64,000 nt of DNA from a bacterium (GTDB taxonomy: Bacteria; Patescibacteriota; Microgenomatia; Woykebacterales; RBG-16-39-9b). A program made the translations under genes and the position numbers. The notes under the pieces are model-generated. The model was not told where the DNA came from. It was given only the letters and a program-made list of their open reading frames with translations, and searched no databases. Within the stretch, counting starts at the first letter, position 1; every line of letters begins with the position of its first letter. The DNA is taken from contig JAUYID010000009.1 in NCBI GenBank assembly GCA_030704665.1, positions 729,702 to 793,701 of the forward strand, written 5' to 3'. Below, piece by piece: positions 4,480-55,422 of this stretch.

Positions 4480-5565
4480 TTGAGTATGGAAGAGTACAAA
4501 CAAAAAATAAAGCAGCTCACTAAACGGCTAGACAGTCTAATTTCGGGAGCGGTTTTGGCTGAAAAAAGAAAAGAAATTCTCTCTTTGGAAGCAAACACTC
4601 TCAAAAGTGATTTCTGGTCGGATACTCTCTCTGCCCAAGAAACGATGCGGCAACTGTCTGATTTAAAAACTGAGGTTGCTGACTTCGAAGATTTGAAAGA
4701 GACACTGACAACCTTGTCAGAACTAGCAGATTTGGAAACTTCAAATCAGGAAGAAACAATCGATTTCGAATCTGAAATTGAAAAGGTAGGAAAAAAACTA
4801 GACAAAATCGAAAGTCTTTCCTTTTTGTCTGGTCCCTATGACAAAGCAGACGCTCTTCTTTCAATCCATTCCGGTCAAGGCGGTACTGAGGCGATGGATT
4901 GGGCCGCTATGCTGCTGCGGATGTATCTGCGCTTTGCTGAAAGAAAGAGCTGGTCAAGCCATCTTATCGAAGAAACCAAAGGTGAGGAAGCCGGAATAAA
5001 ATCGGCAACGATTGAAATAAAAGGCAAACAAGCTTACGGTCTTTTGAAAAATGAAGCTGGAACTCACCGTTTAGTTCGGCAATCCCCTTTTAATGCTGAC
5101 GCCCTTCGCCAAACCTCTTTTACCCTTGTCGAAGTTTTACCTGTCATTGAACAAGCAGAAAAAACTTTACTTAATCCAGAGGAAATTGAAATGGAGGCTT
5201 TTCGCTCTTCTGGTCCGGGCGGGCAAAATGTTCAAAAGGTAAACACCGCCGTCAGACTACGTCACAAACCAACTGGTCTTGTCATCACAGCTCAATCGGA
5301 AAGAAGTCAGCTCCAAAACAAGGAAAATGCTCTTAAGCTCCTCACTGCCAAACTTTACGCTCTTGAAGAAGAAAAACGGGCCAAAGAGGAAAGACAGCTC
5401 AAAGGTCAGTTCAAAGTCGCAGGCTGGGGCAATCAAATTCGTTCTTATGTCCTTCACCCCTACAAACAAGTGAAAGATTTGCGTACTGGACTCGTCTCAA
5501 CTGACCCAAACCAAGTCCTGGACGGTCATTTGGAGCCGTTTATTGAGGCTGAATTGAGGCTCTAA
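4480..5565 (+). CDS. prfB: peptide chain release factor 2
   Basis: GGQ motif (SGPGGQNVQKVNTAVRL) and the RF2-specific SPF tripeptide (RQSPFNAD). The ORF is continuous, with no programmed +1 frameshift. Confidence 0.9.
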   Translation: MSMEEYKQKIKQLTKRLDSLISGAVLAEKRKEILSLEANTLKSDFWSDTLSAQETMRQLSDLKTEVADFEDLKETLTTLSELADLETSNQEETIDFESEIEKVGKKLDKIESLSFLSGPYDKADALLSIHSGQGGTEAMDWAAMLLRMYLRFAERKSWSSHLIEETKGEEAGIKSATIEIKGKQAYGLLKNEAGTHRLVRQSPFNADALRQTSFTLVEVLPVIEQAEKTLLNPEEIEMEAFRSSGPGGQNVQKVNTAVRLRHKPTGLVITAQSERSQLQNKENALKLLTAKLYALEEEKRAKEERQLKGQFKVAGWGNQIRSYVLHPYKQVKDLRTGLVSTDPNQVLDGHLEPFIEAELRL

Positions 5566-46148: not shown

Positions 46149-46409
46149 TTATTCTTCGCGTTCAACCGAAATCGTGCATTCAGTCACCAAAGCCGCGAGT
46201 GCTCCCATCGCGGCGAGGGGGGCGGCAAGAACCGCACCAACTACCCCAACGGTAAGCGGAAATTCAGCGATAGTCTTGCCATTTTTATCTGTAATAGTGA
46301 CCCGACGGACGTTACCCTCTTTGATCAGTTCTTTGACTTTGCGGACAACATCTTCACCTTTAACTCTAAACTCTTCTCGTCTCGCCGAAGTCTGGTCTTT
46401 TTTAGCCAC
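46149..46409 (-). CDS. small hypothetical protein
   Basis: 86 aa. Basic N-terminus and an A/G-rich hydrophobic C-terminus. Confidence 0.35.
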   Translation of the reverse strand: MAKKDQTSARREEFRVKGEDVVRKVKELIKEGNVRRVTITDKNGKTIAEFPLTVGVVGAVLAAPLAAMGALAALVTECTISVEREE

Positions 46410-46422
46410 TTTGATTTACCTC

Positions 46423-46956
46423 CTATTTAACTTTACTGAAACTAACCTTCTTGTCAACGACCAAGCTTTTTACTAGTTCAAAACCTCCGAAAAAAGCTCC
46501 AGTATAGAAAAGGTCTCCCAAAACAGTATTTCGGAAGAAAGGAATCCCCATCAGGTAGCTTTGGAACAAACCTTCCAAAGTTTTCGGATAAAGACTTTCA
46601 GTGTAGAGAACCCCAAAGTTGGTAATCAGAAAGAAAAGAACTGAGGAAAGCAAAGAAGCCCCCAAAACGTTGACCGCACTTTTGTGATTGCGTAGCCAAA
46701 AGCCAATAGCCCCAATCAGTAGAAAGCTCCCGTAAATAACCAGCCGAGAGTCAAAACCGTCAAAGCCAATGAAGATGTCCGAAACAATCATTGCCGAGAG
46801 CGGCAAAACCAAAGCTAAACGCCTATCTAGATAGACCCCGCCAAAAAGAGCCATCGCACCAATCGGAGCAAAGTTCGCTGGGTGAGGAAGTATCCGCAGG
46901 GAGGCAGCGAGCACGATAATTAGGACTGGTAGAATCAATGAGTTAATGTTTTTCAT
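46423..46956 (-). CDS. membrane protein, possibly ECF-transporter S-component-like
   Basis: 177 aa, 5-6 TM helices. LPHPANFAPIGAMALFGG motif. This is a weak assignment. Confidence 0.35.
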   Translation of the reverse strand: MKNINSLILPVLIIVLAASLRILPHPANFAPIGAMALFGGVYLDRRLALVLPLSAMIVSDIFIGFDGFDSRLVIYGSFLLIGAIGFWLRNHKSAVNVLGASLLSSVLFFLITNFGVLYTESLYPKTLEGLFQSYLMGIPFFRNTVLGDLFYTGAFFGGFELVKSLVVDKKVSFSKVK

Positions 46957-47074
46957 AAACTATGAAAACTACTTTAACTTATTTCTTTTTTTAAGTCTAG
47001 ATCCAAATATCCCCGATTCTAAGTAGGAGCAACTCTCTGGAACAGGTGTTTCAGAGAGTTGACAGAAACGAAGG

Positions 47075-47872
47075 TTAATAGCCCAGCTCCCAGGTCACTC
47101 TGTCTTGAGACTGAAGTCTCATATTTGAGACCCCAACGCCGGCGGATCGCCCGTTTACAGAGTACTTCAACCAAGGACCAGAGTTTGAGTCTCCACCTAC
47201 ACTGCTGATCCCTCCAATGAATTGACCCAACGGTTCTGGGAAATTAATCGCTTGCAGTGCAACAGCATTCTTCTGACCAACAAATACCAGAAAATCCCAA
47301 ACTGTTGAGCCTTCTGGAATCCGCTCGGAAACAACCATACCGGCCGCAGGAACTTCCAAGGTGACTACCATCCCAGCCTCCACAGTCGCTGTCGGTTGCT
47401 CTGACGTTGAGGTTGGAGCAACTTCAGACGGTGTTGGTGACGGATCTGGGTTCACCACCTCAGTCGGAGGCGGTATCGCTGTTGCTGGCTCAGTCGTTGG
47501 AGCACCAATCTCTTCCATAGCCGGTGAGGCTGCTGGTTGCGTCGACACAGGAGTTTCCACAGCTGGATCTGTCTGAACTATAGACGACCGTTCAGAGCTT
47601 CCAACTACCTCAACTTCAGAGTTTGGTCTTTGACTGCCTGCTACAACAGTCTCTCCTGAGGAGACAGGTGTAGTCTGAGGCGCGGTTGTAGGTCGAGCAG
47701 TGGAAGTTGGACTCGAACTTACCCTCGTCTTACCAGGTGTCCGAGCTGTACTTTCTGGAGTCTGTCCAACTTGATCTCGATTACCCATCCCACAAGCTTC
47801 AAGAACAATTGCCGCTAATGCAGCTGAAACCAAGCCAAGCATTCGCCTCCGGCTTATAGGTCTTTGCATCAC
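47075..47872 (-). CDS. Tat-signal lipoprotein with C-terminal DUF4430-like domain
   Basis: SRRRMLGLVSAALAAIVLEAC is a twin-arginine motif plus lipobox. P/T/S-rich linker. C-terminal TVWDFL...YSVNG...RLQSQDRVTWEL resembles DUF4430. Confidence 0.6.
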   Translation of the reverse strand: MMQRPISRRRMLGLVSAALAAIVLEACGMGNRDQVGQTPESTARTPGKTRVSSSPTSTARPTTAPQTTPVSSGETVVAGSQRPNSEVEVVGSSERSSIVQTDPAVETPVSTQPAASPAMEEIGAPTTEPATAIPPPTEVVNPDPSPTPSEVAPTSTSEQPTATVEAGMVVTLEVPAAGMVVSERIPEGSTVWDFLVFVGQKNAVALQAINFPEPLGQFIGGISSVGGDSNSGPWLKYSVNGRSAGVGVSNMRLQSQDRVTWELGY

Positions 47873-47896
47873 TCTCTCCTCTCTGTTGATTCCCTC

Positions 47897-49084
47897 TTAC
47901 TTCCTGAACATCTTCTCTGAAAGAAGCGAAAACACTGCACCAAAACTAACCCCTACGAACCCAAAGATAAACCAGACTGAAGTATCAAAACCAGTGTTTG
48001 GCAAAGTATCGGCAGCCAAAACTTCACCATCCTTATCGCTACCAGTTACCTTTGGGTCCTCATTATTGTCACTTCCTGGATCGTTATTCTCATTTCCAGG
48101 CTCGTTTTCATCTGGTTGGGTTGGTTGGTTTGGCTCTTCTTGATTCGGCTCTTCGAAAGTGCCTTCGAAAACCATGACTGGAAAACTTTTCTGAGCCAAG
48201 GCAGTTAGAGAGTTGGAGGAGGTAAAAGTATCAATTCCAAAACCACCATCGATGCCTCCATTTTGCCCTTGTTTGGAAACAAGAAAGTTAAGACCATTGC
48301 TAACCACTATATCATCACCAAGCACAGCTTGGATCACCCAGGCAGTTGAAGCAGCATCAGTACCAAAACCGGTTTGGTACTCCCAACCACCATCAGCTTG
48401 TTGCAGACTAGTTAAATAGTTAACGGCATTTGTAATTGCACTGTCCAAGCCAGAATTTGTAAAACCTGCATCTTGAGCTGCTTTTAAAGCCAAAACAGCC
48501 GCTGCAGTATCATTTGAATCAGAGCTTCCTGAAGTCGAATAGCTCCAACCAAAATCTGAATTTTGATGGGCAAGGATAAAATTAACACTGTCAGAAATGA
48601 TCTGTTGATTGGCACTTAGTCCGGCAGAAATCAAAGCCAAAACTCCGAAAATATCATCGTTTACCCCTGCGATTGAACCAATTTGGTTTGCACTGGCAAA
48701 ACTCTGAACTTTGGCAACATAGTTGACACCACCAAAGGTAAAGGGGTTCTGCCCGGCCGCAGTTACGGCAAGTAAGTCTCTCTCCCAAGCAGTAGTGGCG
48801 GCAGCGTCTGGCTGATTATTTTTCAGGAAATCGACAACCGAGTTTCCTGAATTTTCAATAGTATTGGGATCAATTCCGGCCGCTTCTAGTCCCATGATCG
48901 TCCAGGAAGTCTCTCCCCCAAAGCCGGTAATCTGTCCGGAGCTGTCTTGTTGCGATTGTAAATAACTTACCAACGAAGTGATGTTGCCGCTAACATCGGG
49001 TGTTGCAGCCAAAGCAACGCTTGGCAGTAAACTGAGGGCAGCTAGGCAACTAACAAGGGCAGTCGAAAGTTTGGTTTTGGTCAT
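47897..49084 (-). CDS. alpha/alpha-toroid (prenyltransferase/squalene-cyclase-like repeat) surface protein with LPXTG sortase anchor
   Basis: Signal peptide. Repeated GxxxSWT/GW-type toroid repeats. C-terminal LPNTG, hydrophobic helix and basic tail (KMFRK). Confidence 0.65.
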   Translation of the reverse strand: MTKTKLSTALVSCLAALSLLPSVALAATPDVSGNITSLVSYLQSQQDSSGQITGFGGETSWTIMGLEAAGIDPNTIENSGNSVVDFLKNNQPDAAATTAWERDLLAVTAAGQNPFTFGGVNYVAKVQSFASANQIGSIAGVNDDIFGVLALISAGLSANQQIISDSVNFILAHQNSDFGWSYSTSGSSDSNDTAAAVLALKAAQDAGFTNSGLDSAITNAVNYLTSLQQADGGWEYQTGFGTDAASTAWVIQAVLGDDIVVSNGLNFLVSKQGQNGGIDGGFGIDTFTSSNSLTALAQKSFPVMVFEGTFEEPNQEEPNQPTQPDENEPGNENNDPGSDNNEDPKVTGSDKDGEVLAADTLPNTGFDTSVWFIFGFVGVSFGAVFSLLSEKMFRK

Positions 49085-49093
49085 TCTAGCCTC

Positions 49094-49663
49094 CTAAACT
49101 TTTTTCCAAGTAATAATATCGTTCTCATTCACAGTAACAACTGAAGCACCTTTGCTTGGCGCTTCACCGTTTACTTTGTAGGTCCAATCGCCCTCAACCC
49201 CATGCAGCTGCGTGATAAAGGCTCCCCAACTACCGTAGTTTGTGTATTTCAAAGAAAAGTTAAATTTTGTATGAGCTTCGTCCAAAACTTCAAAAACCGT
49301 CATCCCCTCGATCCAGTCAACTTGGTAGTCATAAGAATCTTCTCCAGTGTCTATTTTTAAAGAAACTGTTTTTACTTCGGGAATTTGGCTTTTGGTTGGG
49401 TTTGAAGATTTTTTGTCGGCTACCACCGCTGGTGCAGTCTTTTGGATAGTTGCTGCTTTAGTCTGACCTGAAGCTTTCTCCAGACCGTCATCTGGTTGAG
49501 TTGTATTTTCTTGGCTGCTTTTTTTATTGCTCTCTTCAACTACAGTTTTGTTTGATTCTAGATTCGAAGTTGATTTGGTACTCTGGATTTCGCCGAGGAC
49601 AATAGTCGAACCAACCAAAATTATTAAAGCTGTTGTGATAAATAAAGAAACTTTGTTTTTCAT
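49094..49663 (-). CDS. secreted DUF4430-domain protein; the start is probably ATG 49663, not 49702
   Basis: RBS AAGGAGG 7 nt upstream of MKNKVSLFITT. C-terminal WIEGMTVFEVLDEA...GDWTYKVNGE...ITWKKV is DUF4430-like. Confidence 0.6.
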   Translation of the reverse strand: MKNKVSLFITTALIILVGSTIVLGEIQSTKSTSNLESNKTVVEESNKKSSQENTTQPDDGLEKASGQTKAATIQKTAPAVVADKKSSNPTKSQIPEVKTVSLKIDTGEDSYDYQVDWIEGMTVFEVLDEAHTKFNFSLKYTNYGSWGAFITQLHGVEGDWTYKVNGEAPSKGASVVTVNENDIITWKKV

Positions 49664-49690
49664 CAAAAAACCTCCTTCGAGAAAGGAGGT

Positions 49691-49723
49691 CCTAAAAAAC
49701 AAAAAACTTCTCGAGCTGAGAAG
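49691..49723 (-). terminator. intrinsic terminator forming the expression platform of the upstream riboswitch
   Basis: Minus strand CUUCUCAGCUCGAGAAG followed by UUUUUUGUUUUUU, lying between the aptamer and the RBS. Confidence 0.5.
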
Positions 49724-49734
49724 TTTGTTCTTGT

Positions 49735-49868
49735 CCTTTGCTCGAAGTAATTCAAAGGCTGGGTTCTGGGTCTACAGTAGCGGCACTCCCCCGGAATTAC
49801 ACCGGGCTTCACCAATTCCTGCTTCGCTGAAAAACTTCAGCGAGGCGAGGGTCCTTTGAGTTTTTAAT
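49735..49868 (-). promoter_or_regulatory. cobalamin (B12) riboswitch-like aptamer
   Basis: Minus-strand GGUGUAAUUCC (cf. GGUGNNAAUCC) and GCCGCUACUGUAG (cf. B12-box GCCACUG). GC-rich with no ORF. Positioned as the 5' leader of the DUF4430 operon. Confidence 0.55.
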
Positions 49869-50013
49869 TGTTAAGTGTTTATTACTTTAAAACGTGGCAA
49901 TTTTTCTGTCAAGACTGCAACTTTTTCTACTTACTGCTTACCTGTGAATTTCTTGAGGAGAAAAAAGGCAACTGCGAAAAAAGAGATAATTGCTGCGCCA
50001 ATACCTACAAAAA

Positions 50014-50559
50014 TCATGACATCATTTTCCTTTTTAGATACTCTGAAAAGTAATTCTTATATCTTTCTCGGATTTCTTCTTTGTACCAATCATCGCCAGT
50101 GATCACCCGTCGACAGTTCAAACTACCACAGTCACAGTACATCTCAAAGTGCGAAGATTCGCTCATTGCATAGTCAAAAGTGATTTCTTCTCCAGGATAA
50201 ATACTTCTCATCGCTACAAGTCTCAGCTTTCCAGAAAAACCTGAATTGGGGTCACAAGAATGATTGATAAAGTCGACATCTTCTAGTTCGTTTTTGTTGG
50301 TAGCCACAAAAAATTGGTCTTCCCCGGTTTGCAGCATGTAATCATAGCCCAAATCAAAAAATTTATTGGCCTCTTTGGTGGGGAGGAACTTGCCTGGTCC
50401 TTGGCGGTAGTCAACGAGCAGCTCGCCTTTTTTGATAAATTCCGAAGCAAAAAGCCCTTGTCCGATTTTACTTTGTGCCAGAACAATCTTTGGGGAAAGG
50501 AATGACTTTTTCATTTGGGCAGCTACAAAAATTATCCTGCTTTGCTTTCTGAAAGTCAA
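50014..50559 (-). CDS. SET-domain protein (putative protein-lysine methyltransferase) with Cys-rich post-SET
   Basis: NHSCDPNSGF and FDYAMSE SET motifs. CDCGSLNCR post-SET. Confidence 0.65.
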   Translation of the reverse strand: MTFRKQSRIIFVAAQMKKSFLSPKIVLAQSKIGQGLFASEFIKKGELLVDYRQGPGKFLPTKEANKFFDLGYDYMLQTGEDQFFVATNKNELEDVDFINHSCDPNSGFSGKLRLVAMRSIYPGEEITFDYAMSESSHFEMYCDCGSLNCRRVITGDDWYKEEIRERYKNYFSEYLKRKMMS

Positions 50560-50561
50560 AC

Positions 50562-51524
50562 TTAGTAATAAATTGTTTGGGTGAGATGGTAGGGCTTATC
50601 CAGTTTGGTTTTGTCTTGGGAAGCAATCCAGAGGACATTTTGCAAGTCAAGTTGGTTGAGTTTAATTCCTCTCTTTTCTAACCTCTCGGCAAGAAGTTGG
50701 CAAGCCCAAAGCATACTGGCCCGAATTTCAATTTCTTCTTCACTTCCCTGGTCTAGCTCAACTCGGTTGTCCACTTTTTCAGCCAAATCACGCCTGTATT
50801 TGAGCAAACCCAAAGTGCGCAAAATCGCTGGAACTTTGTAGTCAGCAAAGCCGTGCATCTCTTCAATCCCGACAATCGGCTCAACTAGGTGGTGCAAGTC
50901 AGCCAAAACTACTTGCGTTTTTTTGTAAAAGTAAACTTCTTTGCCTTTATACGTTGGGACATCATCAAAACCCTGAAGCTCGCTTGCTAGCCCTGCAACA
51001 AGAGTTAGGGCGTCCTTTTTGTGCTCCTCAAAGAAATTGCCAAACTTGCCCTGATACTTTTCAACCAACCTCTCCCCAAGCGCTTTCATGAGATCGTAGC
51101 GCTGTCTCAAAAGTGGAGTTTCCGGTTCCCCTCGATAGATTTCCTGGGTTTTTTCGAGACTAAGATCAGCAAGAAAATTTCCGTCACTAATGTCGTTGCC
51201 TTCTTCGAGCGCTCTCTCAAAAGCAGCAATATTGCCCCACCAACCGTCAAGCTTTTGTCCCTTGTACTCAAGCGTCCATTTACTCGGGTGACCCCAATAG
51301 CAAAAAGCTTGGTTGCCCAGAACAATCAAAAAACCAATTTCTTTTTCTTTGGGTCGGTCGGATTTGTAGCCTAGTGGATAAGCGCGGCTCCAATGAACAG
51401 TTTTTGTGGGAACAAAGTTTTTGGCATAGGAATCAATAGCTTCTTCGTCAATGGTAACTAATTGAGCCTGATCAACTACATTTTTAACCGAGTCGAGGAT
51501 TTTTTCTTTGGTTAACATGTGCAA
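50562..51524 (-). CDS. hypothetical protein, possibly queuosine-salvage (DUF2419/Qng1-like) family
   Basis: 320 aa. Assignment is from overall recollection of the family, not a decisive motif. Confidence 0.4.
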   Translation of the reverse strand: MHMLTKEKILDSVKNVVDQAQLVTIDEEAIDSYAKNFVPTKTVHWSRAYPLGYKSDRPKEKEIGFLIVLGNQAFCYWGHPSKWTLEYKGQKLDGWWGNIAAFERALEEGNDISDGNFLADLSLEKTQEIYRGEPETPLLRQRYDLMKALGERLVEKYQGKFGNFFEEHKKDALTLVAGLASELQGFDDVPTYKGKEVYFYKKTQVVLADLHHLVEPIVGIEEMHGFADYKVPAILRTLGLLKYRRDLAEKVDNRVELDQGSEEEIEIRASMLWACQLLAERLEKRGIKLNQLDLQNVLWIASQDKTKLDKPYHLTQTIYY

Positions 51525-52113
51525 AAGATACTAGCATATTTTTGTAATAAGAAAAAAGTTGCATTAATTCCGTCTTCGCTTTCATCTGATCAACTATCGA
51601 CTTAAATTTTTTCTCATTCAACTTTCCTGACTCTAAAATTTCCAAAATATCTTTCTCATCCTTTTTTCCCATTCGCTGACCGCGCCGGTGTATCAAGTAG
51701 TAAAGAAAAATATTTTCTAAAGAGGTCACTGGTAAACTAATACCTAAGTAACGTTCGTAAGTGATATTAGAGAAAAATTCTTCTGAGAACGGGACCTCAA
51801 ATCTGACTCCTTCACGTACCGTAACCAACTCGGTAGTAATATCAAATTCTCCGTCCTCGATTTCAATACAGTGATTATCGTAGCGGCCGTGATAAATGTT
51901 TTTCGGTCGTCTCAGGCTGACTTTTGTTTTTAGTTGTTTTTCTAGAAAAAGATAGAGCTCTTTGATGTTGGGGTGGAAAACTCTAAAGTCGATATCTTGA
52001 TGGTTACCTTGAAAGCCTAGTAGGTAAAGTCCAATTCCCGCATGTATGTAGTATTTATATTTTTCAGTTTCTAAAACATTTTTTATTTCTCTCAAGGTTC
52101 CTAAATTTATCAA
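51484..52113 (-). CDS. putative nucleotidyltransferase-fold protein
   Basis: HAGIGLYLLGFQGNHQDIDF fits hG[GS]x9-13DhD. Overlaps the downstream gene by 41 nt. Confidence 0.3.
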   Translation of the reverse strand: MINLGTLREIKNVLETEKYKYYIHAGIGLYLLGFQGNHQDIDFRVFHPNIKELYLFLEKQLKTKVSLRRPKNIYHGRYDNHCIEIEDGEFDITTELVTVREGVRFEVPFSEEFFSNITYERYLGISLPVTSLENIFLYYLIHRRGQRMGKKDEKDILEILESGKLNEKKFKSIVDQMKAKTELMQLFSYYKNMLVSFAHVNQRKNPRLG

Positions 52114-52248: not shown

Positions 52249-54855
52249 CTAGCACTCGCTATGTCCACAATTTAAGCACTTTGCGCAGCCTTCTTCGTGG
52301 ACGAAGCTGGCGACACCACATTTCGGACAGAGATCCATTCTTCGGACATTTTTCATTGAGACCGCCTGTGCACTTGTTGCCGTAAAGGCAGCCGGAGCCT
52401 CGACTTTTTCAACCGAAGCATCAGGTGTAACATGACCATTGCCGTTACCGTTGGTAACTCCACTGCTACTGTGCCCGTTTCCGTTTGTCACCCCATTGCC
52501 GTTGTGGCCGTTGCTCGCTACCACTGCGTGACCGTTGCCGTTGGTAGCACCATTGGCAGTCACTGCTCCATTGGTAGTACTAGCAATTTCATCAGTGATT
52601 TGTGGATATGTACTCTCTTTGCCGAGGTATTCCGAAACAACTTTTGAAACCGCGTCCGCTAGAGAAAAGACTCGTCCTGAGCCAAAACCGCGCTGGGAAG
52701 AACCTCCAATACCGGCAAGTTGGTTGACGACCTGCTGAGCGACTTCTTTGGGTGAGTAACCAGTTGGAATGCGTAGGGCGAGAGAAATCAGCCGACCAAT
52801 GGCTTCGGCATCCGCGGTGATGTCGCTGCCAGCCTTGCCGACATTGACAAAAACTTCGAAAGGGTTACCCTCGGGATCAAGGTTGATGGTGACAAAGGCA
52901 TGTCCTACCGGAGTAGCAATACGGCGGGTTACTCCGGTTAGATAATCTGGGCGTTTGCGCAGGTGAACCGGAACTTGAGCACTCGGGGTTTCCTCTTTTT
53001 CTTTCTTTTCACTGTCCATGTGGGAAAGGACTCCTTCGCGAGAGCCATCGCGCATGTAGGTCACACCTTTACAGCCGGCATCGTAAGCTTGCATGTAAAG
53101 TCTTTTGACTTCTTCGACGCTGTGTTCGTTTGGTGCATTGACGGTTTTTGAAATTGAGCTGTCAGTGTAGTCTTGGACTAGAGCTTGGACGGTCACGTGT
53201 TCTTCCGGAGTCAGGTCATTAGCGCTGACAAACCATTCGGGTGCTTTTTCCGCTTCAGGATTGGCATTTTTCCACTCCTCGTAGAGAGGGTGGTAAATGG
53301 TATGCTCACCAGTACGGTCACGACGCACCATGGCGAAATCGTAAACCGGCTCAATCCCTGAGGAAACTCCACTAACTAGAGAGGTCGTTCCGGTTGGAGC
53401 TTGAGTGAGAAGGACAGCATTGCGAATACCGTTCTTCGCAATGAGATCGCGCACTCGGCTCGGAAGTTTTTTGATGAACCAACCCTGCAAGTATTTTTCG
53501 CGCTCAAAGTTCGAAAAGACTCCTTTTTCTTTAGCTAGCAAGGCACTTTCCTCATAAGCTGTATCCCGAATCGTTTTGTAGATTTTTTCGATCACTGGTT
53601 GGGCTTCGGTAGAGCCATAGCGAAGTTTCATTTTTATCAAGGCATCTCCCAAACCCATGGTTCCGAGCCCAGTGCGACGAATCCCCATCTGCTGCTCTCG
53701 ATTTTCCGGAAAATAGTAGCCGGTGACATCAACGACGTTGTCCATCATCCGAATGGCGATGTGAACTTTTTCTTCCAAATCTTCGAAATCGAATTCGCTG
53801 TTTTCTTTGACAAAGGCAGAGAGGTTCATCGCACCCAGATTGCAGACTGCCCAGGCTCCCAACGGCTGCTCACCGCAAGGGTTGGTGGCGATCAGTTTTT
53901 CGAAGTACCAAGTGTTGCTTCTTTTGTTCGATCTTTCAATGAAATGTAACCCTGGCTCAGCAGAGGCCCAGGCAGCTTCACAGATTTTGTTCCAAACCTC
54001 AGAGGCTTTGACAGTTTTGTAGACAACAACTTTTTTGCCCTCCGCCTTCCATTTGCTGATGTCCCCATCCCAGAGCTTGTCGTAGTCTGGATCAGTAATA
54101 TCTGGGAAGTAGAGATCCCAGTCTTTGTCATTTTTTACAGCTTCCATGAAAGCATCGGAAACACAAACTGAGAGGTTAGCACCGTTAATTCTGGTTAAAT
54201 CTTTTTTGACGGTGATGAACTCTTCAACATCCGGGTGCCAATCATCGATCATCAGCATCAAAGCGCCTCTTCGAGACCCACCTTGCTGGATGACATCATG
54301 AGTCGCCGTCGAGTAAAGCTCAGCCCAATTCACCGGTCCGGAGCTAGTGCCATTCACTTTTTTGACACGCGCCCCACGAGGCCGAAGCGAGGACAAGTTG
54401 ATGCCTACACCTCCGCTGCGGGACATGATGTCGACCATAAGTTTGAGATTGTCGATGATACCATTGCGGGAATCGTGCGGTGAGGGAATGACGAAACAGT
54501 TGTAGAAAGTCACTTCGTAGGGAGTCCCAGCTCCAGAAAGAACCCGACCGCCGGGAACGTATTTAAAACCTTTGAGGGCGGAATAAAATTTCTTGGTCCA
54601 TTCTTTTTGTTGTTCGGCGGTCTTTTCAACTTGGGCTAGCCCGGCAGCCACTCTCTTCCACATCTCCTCTGGATGTTTTTCGACAGAGTTGCCGGCAGCA
54701 TCTTTCAAAGAGTAGCGATCGGTGAAAACTTTGGCTCTAACTCCGGCGAGCTGGGTTTGCTCGCTATCCTCGATCAAAGATTCTAGTTTCTTTTGTAGTT
54801 TCTCTGAGAAGACAAATCCCTGCTGTCTGGATTTAGATTTAGCTTTCACAGCCAT
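52249..54855 (-). CDS. nrdJ: adenosylcobalamin-dependent ribonucleotide reductase (class II) with Asn/Gly-rich insert and C-terminal zinc ribbon
   Basis: Active-site ATNPCGEQPLGAWAVCNLGAMNLS. C-terminal NG(H/A/V)-repeat tract then CPKCG...CAKCLNCG. 868 aa. Confidence 0.85.
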   Translation of the reverse strand: MAVKAKSKSRQQGFVFSEKLQKKLESLIEDSEQTQLAGVRAKVFTDRYSLKDAAGNSVEKHPEEMWKRVAAGLAQVEKTAEQQKEWTKKFYSALKGFKYVPGGRVLSGAGTPYEVTFYNCFVIPSPHDSRNGIIDNLKLMVDIMSRSGGVGINLSSLRPRGARVKKVNGTSSGPVNWAELYSTATHDVIQQGGSRRGALMLMIDDWHPDVEEFITVKKDLTRINGANLSVCVSDAFMEAVKNDKDWDLYFPDITDPDYDKLWDGDISKWKAEGKKVVVYKTVKASEVWNKICEAAWASAEPGLHFIERSNKRSNTWYFEKLIATNPCGEQPLGAWAVCNLGAMNLSAFVKENSEFDFEDLEEKVHIAIRMMDNVVDVTGYYFPENREQQMGIRRTGLGTMGLGDALIKMKLRYGSTEAQPVIEKIYKTIRDTAYEESALLAKEKGVFSNFEREKYLQGWFIKKLPSRVRDLIAKNGIRNAVLLTQAPTGTTSLVSGVSSGIEPVYDFAMVRRDRTGEHTIYHPLYEEWKNANPEAEKAPEWFVSANDLTPEEHVTVQALVQDYTDSSISKTVNAPNEHSVEEVKRLYMQAYDAGCKGVTYMRDGSREGVLSHMDSEKKEKEETPSAQVPVHLRKRPDYLTGVTRRIATPVGHAFVTINLDPEGNPFEVFVNVGKAGSDITADAEAIGRLISLALRIPTGYSPKEVAQQVVNQLAGIGGSSQRGFGSGRVFSLADAVSKVVSEYLGKESTYPQITDEIASTTNGAVTANGATNGNGHAVVASNGHNGNGVTNGNGHSSSGVTNGNGNGHVTPDASVEKVEAPAAFTATSAQAVSMKNVRRMDLCPKCGVASFVHEEGCAKCLNCGHSEC

Positions 54856-54873: not shown

Positions 54874-55422
54874 TTAATTAACGTGACTAATTTTAGTCTT
54901 GTCTTTTAATGTCGTCTTCTGGGGGCGAAAACCCTCAGATTCACTCTTGCTTGCGGGTTTCCCGCTTCGCAACAAATTGCGAACTTCTTTTTCAAAAGCC
55001 TCAAGATCTCCAAAAGAGCGGTAAACACTAGCAAAACGGATGTAGGCGACTTTATCCAAAACTTTGAGTTTGTTCATGACGATCTCACCGATTTCTACTG
55101 AAGGAATCTCGATTGAATCTTTACTTCTTAGTTCTGACTCAATTTCCGAAACGACTTTTTCGATCCGATCCATCCCAATCGGTCGCTTCTCCGTGGCTTT
55201 GAGAAAACCATTAACCAGTTTCTTGCGGTCAAACTGCTCGCGTCTTCCATCTTTTTTGATGACAATCAAGTTCACCATTTCAATCCGCTCGTAAGTGGTA
55301 AAACGTTTACCACACTTGAGACACTCACGGCGACGGCGGATTGATTCGAGATCTTCTGTCTCGCGGCTATCGAGAACAGAAGTGTCAAAAAATGAACAAT
55401 ATGGACATTTCATAGTTTTCAA
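54874..55422 (-). CDS. nrdR: transcriptional repressor NrdR
   Basis: MKCPYCSF...CLKCGKRFTTYE zinc ribbon plus ATP-cone. 18 nt upstream of nrdJ. Confidence 0.85.
   Translation of the reverse strand: MKTMKCPYCSFFDTSVLDSRETEDLESIRRRRECLKCGKRFTTYERIEMVNLIVIKKDGRREQFDRKKLVNGFLKATEKRPIGMDRIEKVVSEIESELRSKDSIEIPSVEIGEIVMNKLKVLDKVAYIRFASVYRSFGDLEAFEKEVRNLLRSGKPASKSESEGFRPQKTTLKDKTKISHVN

Follow-up and report, generated by a model that had tools for sequence, protein, structure and literature searches.

The window analyzed here is a 64-kb stretch of contig JAUYID010000009.1 from the metagenome-assembled genome of a bacterium of the candidate phyla radiation (CPR, or Patescibacteria) most closely related to Candidatus Woykebacteria, and its minus strand carries, from 49912 to about 46149, an operon that very probably serves corrinoid acquisition and that, taken as a whole, is likely to be a riboswitch-repressed pathway by which this CPR bacterium obtains vitamin B12. 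The operon is one transcription unit, in which a promoter-like site is followed by a cobalamin riboswitch, a terminator, a second hairpin, a DUF4430 gene (gene 1), an alpha6/alpha6-toroid gene (gene 2), a second DUF4430 gene (gene 3), a gene for the membrane protein DUF6580 (gene 4, probably on the same transcript as genes 1 to 3), and possibly a DUF4342 gene (gene 5). An earlier annotation made from the sequence of the window alone (the original prediction) had described a three-gene operon under B12-riboswitch control, encoding a transcobalamin-like B12 binder split across separate proteins and displayed on the cell wall. Genes 1 to 3 are present as described, and the idea of a split binder holds up in silico, through the riboswitch, the homology of the beta-domain, the fold of the toroid, and the fusions found in relatives; the operon does not, however, end at 47075, since DUF6580 and probably DUF4342 follow. 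The DUF6580 gene, absent from the original prediction, is in our view the most informative gene of the operon.

The leader contains a cobalamin riboswitch aptamer (49752..49859, minus strand), recognized by the Rfam AdoCbl-II (adenosylcobalamin) model, by its fold, by its orthologs, and by a custom covariance model, and we regard it as almost certainly genuine because in related loci the element is syntenic, covarying, and accompanied by conserved terminators. The two strings proposed earlier as parts of a cobalamin riboswitch core, GGUGUAAUUCC and GCCGCUACUGUAG, are both present on the minus strand. The AdoCbl-II model (RF01689) matches 49752-49830 with 32.5 bits (E=1.1e-5, 701 nt searched), which supports the class of the element but misses the gathering score of 36.5; at the gathering threshold, Rfam finds no cobalamin element in the whole window and returns a tRNA alone. 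In the predicted fold, P1 is a 7-bp helix of UCAAAGG (49859-49853) and CCUUUGA (49758-49752), and a 33-nt hairpin (49850-49818) is inserted between P1 and the conserved core, which accounts for the sub-threshold score. This hairpin, the positional equivalent of the P2 arm in Cbl-I and hybrid cobalamin riboswitches, is absent in the closest orthologous loci (L003, L004, and L006), and a shorter insert takes its place in L015. Judged from its sequence, the element has a short Cbl-II-type core with no long P6 extension, and it shares with the Cbl-II/AdoCbl-II riboswitches (RF01689; PMC7367189) this short core, the conserved core sequence, and a placement upstream of B12 transport genes, differing from them in the extra hairpin of the window copy, which the close orthologs lack. 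Among Cbl-II riboswitches, Cbl-IIa prefers hydroxo- or methyl-cobalamin and Cbl-IIb prefers AdoCbl (PMC7367189). About 25 nt upstream of P1, a consensus scan places a promoter-like site (49884..49912, minus strand; TTGACA, 17 nt, TAAAGT; 10 of 12 matches), a consensus match only; the whole region holds six such sites against 4.0 expected.

The comparison of related loci extends this picture well beyond the window. We assembled 68 loci of ~13 kb that encode relatives of the toroid, 54 from bacteria, almost without exception CPR, and 14 from archaea of the Thermoplasmatota. A cobalamin-clan match occupies the same position in all five of the closest orthologous loci, above the gathering score in two (L004, 38.4 bits; L006, 39.7 bits), and two more distant leaders also exceed 36.5 bits (L013, 55.3; L015, 37.8). 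A covariance model built from nine leaders, in which the core GUGCCGC.AC.GU is invariant, found 55 elements; in 46 of the 54 bacterial loci a riboswitch on the coding strand directly precedes the first gene of the module, it is present beyond these 46 in L051 and L065, where the open reading frame caller missed the gene, and of the loci that have none, two begin within the operon. L026 has one riboswitch directly before DUF6580 and another before DUF4430-toroid. With the same custom model, none was found in the 14 archaeal loci.

An automatic alignment and fold of the nine leaders (MAFFT with RNAalifold) gave two helices only, with P1 and the next helix mis-registered, and a hand-specified structure with Infernal realignment was used in its place. 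On this Infernal alignment, which is fitted to the model and so flatters the figures for pairing and covariation, 82.5% of cells are paired versus 59.2% in shuffles (none of the 500 attained 82.5%), the covariation score is 0.525 versus 0.152 in shuffles and 0.04-0.14 in controls with slid or shifted partners, and double-sided changes occur in 17 of 21 pairs; on the unfitted MAFFT alignment, double changes occur in four of the five pairs of the main hairpin. Of 47 leaders, 35 have a terminator-like hairpin plus U-tract downstream of the aptamer, compared with ~10% of shuffled controls. Synteny, covariation, and terminators thus bear out the proposal that the operon is under riboswitch control.

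The expression platform of the window copy begins with an intrinsic terminator (49691..49726, minus strand), in which a terminator scan finds a 9-bp stem at 49726-49704 and then a U-tract, ahead of gene 1 as had been predicted. A second hairpin, seen in the centroid fold and followed by U6 (49668..49692, minus strand), holds in its 3' arm the Shine-Dalgarno sequence GGAGG (49675-49671), 8 nt ahead of the gene 1 ATG at 49663, and its role might be sequestration of the ribosome-binding site or that of a second terminator. Inspection of the expression platform by eye yielded neither an L5-L13 kissing-loop partner nor a clear antiterminator that could be assigned, so we describe the switching mechanism as terminator-based only. 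When cobalamin is sufficient in the cell, the aptamer would bind it, the terminator would form, and transcription would stop, with the second hairpin also burying the ribosome-binding site; when cobalamin is scarce, the operon would be expressed. The direction of this presumed repression is based on the anatomy of the leader and the behavior of known cobalamin riboswitches.

The two DUF4430 proteins connect the operon to the animal B12 carriers. Gene 1 (49094..49663, minus strand; 189 aa), the conserved first gene of the orthologous loci, has an N-terminal membrane anchor or signal (residues 3-27), a 91-aa linker rich in S, K, and T, and a C-terminal DUF4430 domain (PF14478, 43.7 bits, E=3.9e-11). 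Gene 3 (47075..47869, minus strand; 264 aa from a corrected start at the ATG at 47869) has a twin-arginine-like signal (SRRRMLGL), a lipobox-like LEAC containing its sole cysteine, a 159-aa linker rich in T, P, V, and S, and a C-terminal DUF4430 domain (PF14478, 35.7 bits, E=1.2e-8). Both scores exceed the curated cutoff of 23.8, and the two proteins agree with their earlier description as a secreted DUF4430 protein and a DUF4430 lipoprotein of the twin-arginine type. The original prediction had also suggested that DUF4430 resembles the beta-domain of transcobalamin. A single-sequence search with gene 1 against the Protein Data Bank (PDB) returned nothing useful and a profile was required; a profile of 25 DUF4430 domains from the related loci, searched against the whole PDB, matches the transcobalamin family alone: the isolated human transcobalamin beta-domain (E=3.1e-8), residues 334-405 of full-length transcobalamin (4.9e-7), haptocorrin (2.8e-3), and intrinsic factor (1.4e-2), with nothing else below 0.4. 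By this profile evidence, DUF4430 is a true homolog of the transcobalamin beta-domain. The homology of the beta-domain to bacterial SLBB proteins was shown in 2007 by Burroughs, Balaji, Iyer, and Aravind (PMC1796856), who gave a beta-hairpin insert after the helix as the defining feature of the transcobalamin-like clade.

Gene 3 is a genome-specific insertion that lies outside the conserved module. It is missing from L002-L006, where DUF6580 comes directly after the toroid with a spacing of 7-11 nt, and a search of 5.8 billion clustered proteins returned, at the sensitivity of that search, no relative of gene 3 but itself. Its GC content is 51-55%, compared with ~38-47% in the flanks, and its DUF4430 domain, compared over the full length, shares at most ~30% identity with the other DUF4430 domains of the loci, with archaeal DUF6580+DUF4430 fusions as its best matches. 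Either transfer or rapid divergence could have produced such a gene.

Gene 2 (47897..49084, minus strand; 395 aa) consists of a signal peptide, a toroid (~residues 30-310), a 50-aa acidic linker, and a sorting signal that reads LPNTG-FDTSVWFIFGFVGVSFGAVFSLLSEKMF-RK, that is, motif, hydrophobic helix, and basic tail, in keeping with the wall-anchored alpha/alpha-toroid protein that had been predicted. The L, P, and T of the LPXTG motif are nearly invariant in orthologs, and the NCBIfam sorting-signal model TIGR01167 falls just short of its cutoff (13.7 versus 15.9); a motif search found no sortase gene in the window. Gene 2 has Pfam matches to SQHop_cyclase_C (E=4.4e-8) and Prenyltrans only, and its AlphaFold2 model has 12 helices with a predicted local distance difference test score (pLDDT) that exceeds 90 across most of residues 31-310. 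Single-domain class-II terpene cyclases are ranked best when this model is searched with Foldseek (1e-7), followed by rat transcobalamin (8ixu, 1.9e-5), the transcobalamin entries 2v3n (7.4e-5) and 2bb6 (2.2e-4), and intrinsic factor (3kq4, 4.0e-4). A sequence profile of the toroid matches class-II terpene cyclases in the PDB with E=3.5e-22 and finds no transcobalamin chain there at E values up to 10. The toroid had been proposed as the counterpart of the transcobalamin alpha-domain, and this stands for the modeled alpha6/alpha6 fold but not for the sequence family, which is that of terpene cyclases and prenyltransferases; the relation to the alpha-domain, as far as the model shows, is at the level of fold only. 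At the site of the class-II cyclase DxDD motif, gene 2 reads D189-S-N191-D192, with SDSNDT aligned to SDVDDT of drimenyl diphosphate synthase, and the consensus of the toroid family is SDxNDTA. We take the asparagine of this DxND to correspond, by our own mapping of the numbering, to D303, the residue mutated in solved drimenyl diphosphate synthases. Gene 2 thus encodes a secreted, probably non-catalytic relative of the terpene cyclases.

Gene 4 (46423..46956, minus strand) encodes a 177-aa membrane protein of the DUF6580 family (Pfam E=1.9e-55), a candidate corrinoid transporter, and we lean towards its being the transporter of this operon. The predicted structure (pLDDT 85.5) has six helices in the fold of an energy-coupling factor (ECF) S-component, and its best structural match is BtuM (PDB 8ovv), at 17% sequence identity. 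Here too a single-sequence search against the PDB gave nothing useful and a profile was required: its sole match is chain A of 6FNP (ECF-CbrT; E=0.006, residues 5-105, helices 1-3), in a segment that Pfam classifies as ECF S-component. Some DUF6580 homologs match Pfam ECF S-component models, and JGI names some of them as such. The window DUF6580 contains no cysteine and there is none among the invariant columns of 34 homologs, whereas H25, D60, Y75, and R142 are invariant; because cysteine is invariant in the BtuM family and DUF6580 has no conserved one, we consider DUF6580, on its modeled structure, to be like BtuM in fold yet not a BtuM. BtuM proteins carry an invariant cobalt-ligating cysteine (Cys80 in Thiobacillus denitrificans) and are found in organisms without an ECF module (PMC6072759), while CbrT, whose homologs are 25-60% identical, transports only with its ECF module (PMC5997447). 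The DUF6580 family is large (6,413 cluster representatives at 50% identity) and abundant in CPR bacteria and Thermoplasmatota, and we found no mention of it in the literature searched. That it works without an ECF module is a tentative proposal, and we put forward with similar reserve the broader hypothesis that DUF6580 is a third family of S-component-type B12 transporters after CbrT and BtuM, with neither an ECF ATPase nor the BtuM cysteine, fed by a DUF4430 receptor with or without a toroid, and that it provides the main route of B12 entry in CPR/Patescibacteria and some Thermoplasmatota, which rely on other cells for their cofactors.

Evidence that these proteins act together comes from fusions and from gene neighborhoods. 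Every pairwise fusion of toroid, DUF4430, and DUF6580 exists: toroid+DUF4430 in many Parcubacteria-type loci, DUF4430+toroid in L008, L012, L013, and L029, DUF6580+DUF4430 in the archaeal loci L028, L035, and L046, and S-component/DUF6580+toroid in P0075, P0086, and P0113. Since toroid and DUF4430 are fused in either order in relatives, a joint function of the two is supported, and in the five closest loci the unfused genes follow the order DUF4430, toroid, DUF6580. To avoid circularity, a second set of 80 metagenomic loci (L070-L149, some of them near-duplicates) was picked via DUF6580 alone; a riboswitch precedes the operon in 46 of the 59 loci with enough upstream sequence, and most often the order runs riboswitch, small DUF4430, DUF6580. 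Only six loci of this set have a toroid, and so DUF4430 and DUF6580 are the core of the module and the toroid an accessory. In one locus of this set (L129), an AdoCbl-II riboswitch (4815-4892, 46.9 bits) lies ~1.25 kb past the DUF6580 gene and ahead of what is likely a separate toroid gene, from which we judge that the toroid can form a riboswitch-controlled unit of its own. The module of the 14 Thermoplasmatota loci (L028, L030, L033, L035, L046, L050, L055, L056, L058, L061, L063, L064, L066, and L067) is riboswitch-free, often has DUF6580 fused to DUF4430, and includes several DUF4430 paralogs, on both strands. Archaeal versions, it has been cautioned, might bind another metabolite (Burroughs et al., PMC1796856).

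A gene for a PduO-type ATP:cob(I)alamin adenosyltransferase (PF01923/TIGR00636) lies in the module or within ~100 nt of it in 33 of the 80 DUF6580-selected loci, and within ~750 nt in 9 of the 68 toroid-selected loci, for example, at 6580-7140 in L012, 7794-8360 in L013, 5815-6378 (minus strand) in L023, and 7242-7796 in L026. It usually comes directly after DUF6580, and in a few loci it stands ahead of the module or up to ~750 nt away. Its presence at the module links uptake to the formation of AdoCbl. Many related loci have, after PduO, a second cobalamin riboswitch ahead of a protein of 350-590 aa (L012, 7213-8856, plus strand; L023, 6930-8444, minus strand; L077, 5144-6670; L090, 1931-3355; L096, 1990-3591; L098, 5225-6631; L133, 1272-3032; and others). 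Seventeen of 19 such proteins form one BLASTP cluster with a C-terminal zinc ribbon and conserved SPxG and GCxGG motifs; this B12-regulated family of CPR bacteria, which has no member in the window and no relative by Pfam, NCBIfam, or PDB-profile search, is perhaps a B12-independent substitute enzyme.

From the relationships of sequence and structure, the riboswitch, the synteny, and the fusions, we infer the following course of ligand binding, hand-off, and transport. Three stalked extracellular proteins, the membrane-tethered DUF4430 protein, the sortase-anchored toroid, and the DUF4430 lipoprotein, would capture the corrinoid, and a DUF4430 beta-grasp domain and the toroid would probably clamp one B12 molecule between them in the manner of the two domains of transcobalamin. 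The ligand would then be handed to the six-helix DUF6580 protein and carried across the membrane, and inside the cell the corrinoid would be adenosylated and used by the AdoCbl-dependent ribonucleotide reductase NrdJ. We propose this transcobalamin-like sandwich and relay on the grounds of homology, fusions, and anchoring. NrdJ is the B12 consumer in the window: its gene, outside the operon at 52249..54855 (minus strand), scores 578.8 bits against TIGR02504 (NrdJ_Z; cutoff 399.95), in line with the B12-dependent reductase reported in the original prediction.

Several observations weigh against this account. In sequence, terpene cyclases stand nearer to the toroid than transcobalamin does. For DUF6580, the similarity to CbrT is weak, the Foldseek E-values for S-components fall short of significance, and the essential cysteine of BtuM is missing; moreover, CbrT needs an ECF module, and no gene for an ECF ATPase or EcfT turned up in the window or in the 68 loci. 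In the other 13 of the 59 DUF6580-selected loci, no riboswitch was found even with Rfam's own models. In this genome, gene 3 and DUF6580 stand 118 nt apart with a hairpin in between, which makes the co-transcription of DUF6580 uncertain, and a motif search of the window found no PduO gene. In an alternative reading, the surface proteins capture B12 and DUF6580 is an ordinary group-II ECF S-component that docks on a shared EcfAA'T encoded elsewhere in the genome, the whole being a standard B12 importer of the ECF type with helpers outside the cell. The S-component fold, the match to CbrT alone, the homologs annotated as S-components, the dependence of CbrT on its ECF module (PMC5997447), and the CbiO/CbiQ-like genes in Firmicute SLBB operons (PMC1796856) all speak for such an arrangement, to which we give appreciable but lesser weight: a motif search that covered the window and, in the 68 loci, everything within 6 kb of the module revealed neither an ECF-type ATPase nor EcfT, and the best structural match, BtuM, works without an ECF module. 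The same search found only two ATP-binding cassette ATPases in the window, both far from the operon; one is small and stands beside a 293-aa membrane protein, a pair that we read as FtsE/FtsX-like from size and adjacency, and the other is beside a 367-aa permease.

The remaining explanations would change the ligand, the role of the toroid, or the identity of the leader, and they are disfavored because of the riboswitch, the linkage to PduO, and the disrupted catalytic motif. Import of heme or another tetrapyrrole instead of B12 has been proposed for a Lactobacillus sakei pair and its ECF transporter, where the argument comes from docking and physiology and from an S-component without the known cobalamin-binding residues, and DUF6580 too is without the cobalt-ligating cysteine of BtuM; we think this very unlikely for the present module, given that a cobalamin-class riboswitch controls the operon in most CPR loci, that a cobalamin adenosyltransferase gene is at or near the module in many loci, and that the genome encodes a B12-dependent ribonucleotide reductase. 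The toroid could be an enzyme (a terpene cyclase/mutase or prenyltransferase) whose position in the operon is unrelated to B12 binding, as its Pfam and PDB profile matches and its NCBI name, "terpene cyclase/mutase family protein", would have it. This is highly improbable, however, for a protein whose central DxDD aspartate is replaced by asparagine, both in gene 2 and in the family consensus, that carries signals for secretion and wall anchoring, that is fused to DUF4430 or S-components in relatives, and that is under cobalamin riboswitch control. We give almost no credence to the idea that the riboswitch is a chance match in an ordinary terminator-bearing untranslated region: nothing in the window reaches the Rfam gathering threshold, and the score is 4 bits short, but the shortfall is explained by the inserted hairpin and the synteny and covariation of the element extend over dozens of loci, several of them above the gathering score, so that the comparative data effectively refute a chance origin.

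Several known systems are close to the corrinoid acquisition pathway that we favor. Burroughs et al. reported transcobalamin-like SLBB proteins in bacteria, equipped with signal peptides and anchors of the Gram-positive kind, fused to toroids and found with paralogous SLBB partners and in CbiO/CbiQ operons, and predicted that they scavenge B12 (PMC1796856), a functional prediction from other genomes that agrees with ours. The two systems have in common secreted or Gram-positive-anchored proteins with a transcobalamin-type beta-grasp (now DUF4430), an alpha/alpha toroid, and a second paralogous SLBB protein in the operon; the SLBB systems occur in B12 auxotrophs. In them the toroid is described as fused to SLBB and the operons include CbiO/CbiQ-like (ECF) genes, whereas here the toroid is separate, DUF6580 is present with no ECF genes nearby, control is by a riboswitch, and the hosts are CPR bacteria. 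In Lactobacillus sakei, the lsa1836-1840 genes encode an ECF transporter with a beta-like protein (Lsa1839) and an alpha-like protein (Lsa1840), a split pair that was modeled in 2019 (bioRxiv 10.1101/864751). That locus shares with ours separate alpha-like and beta-like proteins beside an S-component transporter, but it has a full ECF module and heme as the argued ligand, where our operon has no ECF module nearby, a cobalamin riboswitch, and another S-component-like family, DUF6580. Of the known S-component-type transporters, BtuM (T. denitrificans; PMC6072759; 8ovv) is mainly proteobacterial with its invariant Cys80, unlike the DUF6580 protein of the window, which has no cysteine and whose family is abundant in CPR bacteria and Thermoplasmatota. 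ECF-CbrT (Lactobacillus delbrueckii; PMC5997447; 6FNP) is a B12- and cobinamide-specific S-component, the sole PDB sequence detected by the DUF6580 profile, that is inactive without EcfAA'T; its similarity to DUF6580 is marginal, and Pfam keeps DUF6580 as a family of its own. Hemin was tried as a competitor of B12 transport by ECF-CbrT (PMC5997447). Mammalian transcobalamin, intrinsic factor, and haptocorrin likewise combine a beta-grasp homologous to DUF4430 with an alpha6/alpha6 toroid that clamps one cobalamin, but they are single chains and their alpha-domain belongs to a different sequence family from the window toroid, which falls with the terpene-cyclase group.

Thus, surface scavenging of B12 was proposed as early as 2007, and the description of a split alpha/beta pair followed in 2019. 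A literature search on DUF6580, on cobalamin riboswitches of CPR/Patescibacteria, and on PF14478/SLBB found nothing on the present system; in particular, we did not find described the systematic control of the module by cobalamin riboswitches in CPR bacteria or the DUF4430-DUF6580 core operon with PduO, and the pairing with DUF6580 as the membrane protein, which is like BtuM in fold and like CbrT in sequence and has no ECF genes close by, appears new. CPR/Patescibacteria have tiny genomes, and most of their cofactors must be imported. How they acquire B12 is likewise not described in the literature searched, and the window locus, together with ~130 related loci, offers a coherent and testable pathway that comprises a sensor RNA, capture proteins, a candidate transporter, an adenosyltransferase, and a B12-dependent ribonucleotide reductase. 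The analysis also assigns a specific hypothesis to the large DUF6580 family, which, if the hypothesis is true, would represent a "binding-protein-assisted S-component". Finally, it is relevant to the suggestion of a bacterial origin for animal transcobalamin (PMC1796856), in that here the beta-domain is homologous, whereas the toroid was recruited separately from the terpene-cyclase family.

At the 3' end of the operon, gene 5 (46149..46409, minus strand) encodes an 86-aa DUF4342 protein with one hydrophobic helix (PF14242, E=7.2e-27); it begins 13 nt past gene 4 and may be co-transcribed with the operon. A DUF4342 gene also stands directly 3' of DUF6580 in L005 (7818-8099), L070 (4627-4872), L071 (4607-4846), and L076 (1134-1370). 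A promoter-like site (46457-46430) lies inside the 3' end of gene 4, ahead of DUF4342. The gap between gene 3 and DUF6580 contains a 9-bp hairpin (47031-47060, minus strand) with arms AACUCUCUG...CAGAGAGUU, and terminator and promoter scans found neither a U-tract nor a promoter-like site within the gap; the hairpin might be a remnant of the gene 3 insertion, an RNA-stability element, or a weak terminator. Upstream of the operon on the minus strand lie genes for a SET-domain protein (50014-50559, just upstream), a queuosine salvage protein (50562-51524), and a nucleotidyltransferase-like open reading frame (51484-52113), with NrdJ beyond them and, next to it, NrdR (54874-55422, minus strand), identified by its NrdR domains. 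The queuosine salvage protein points to another scavenging dependency of this bacterium.

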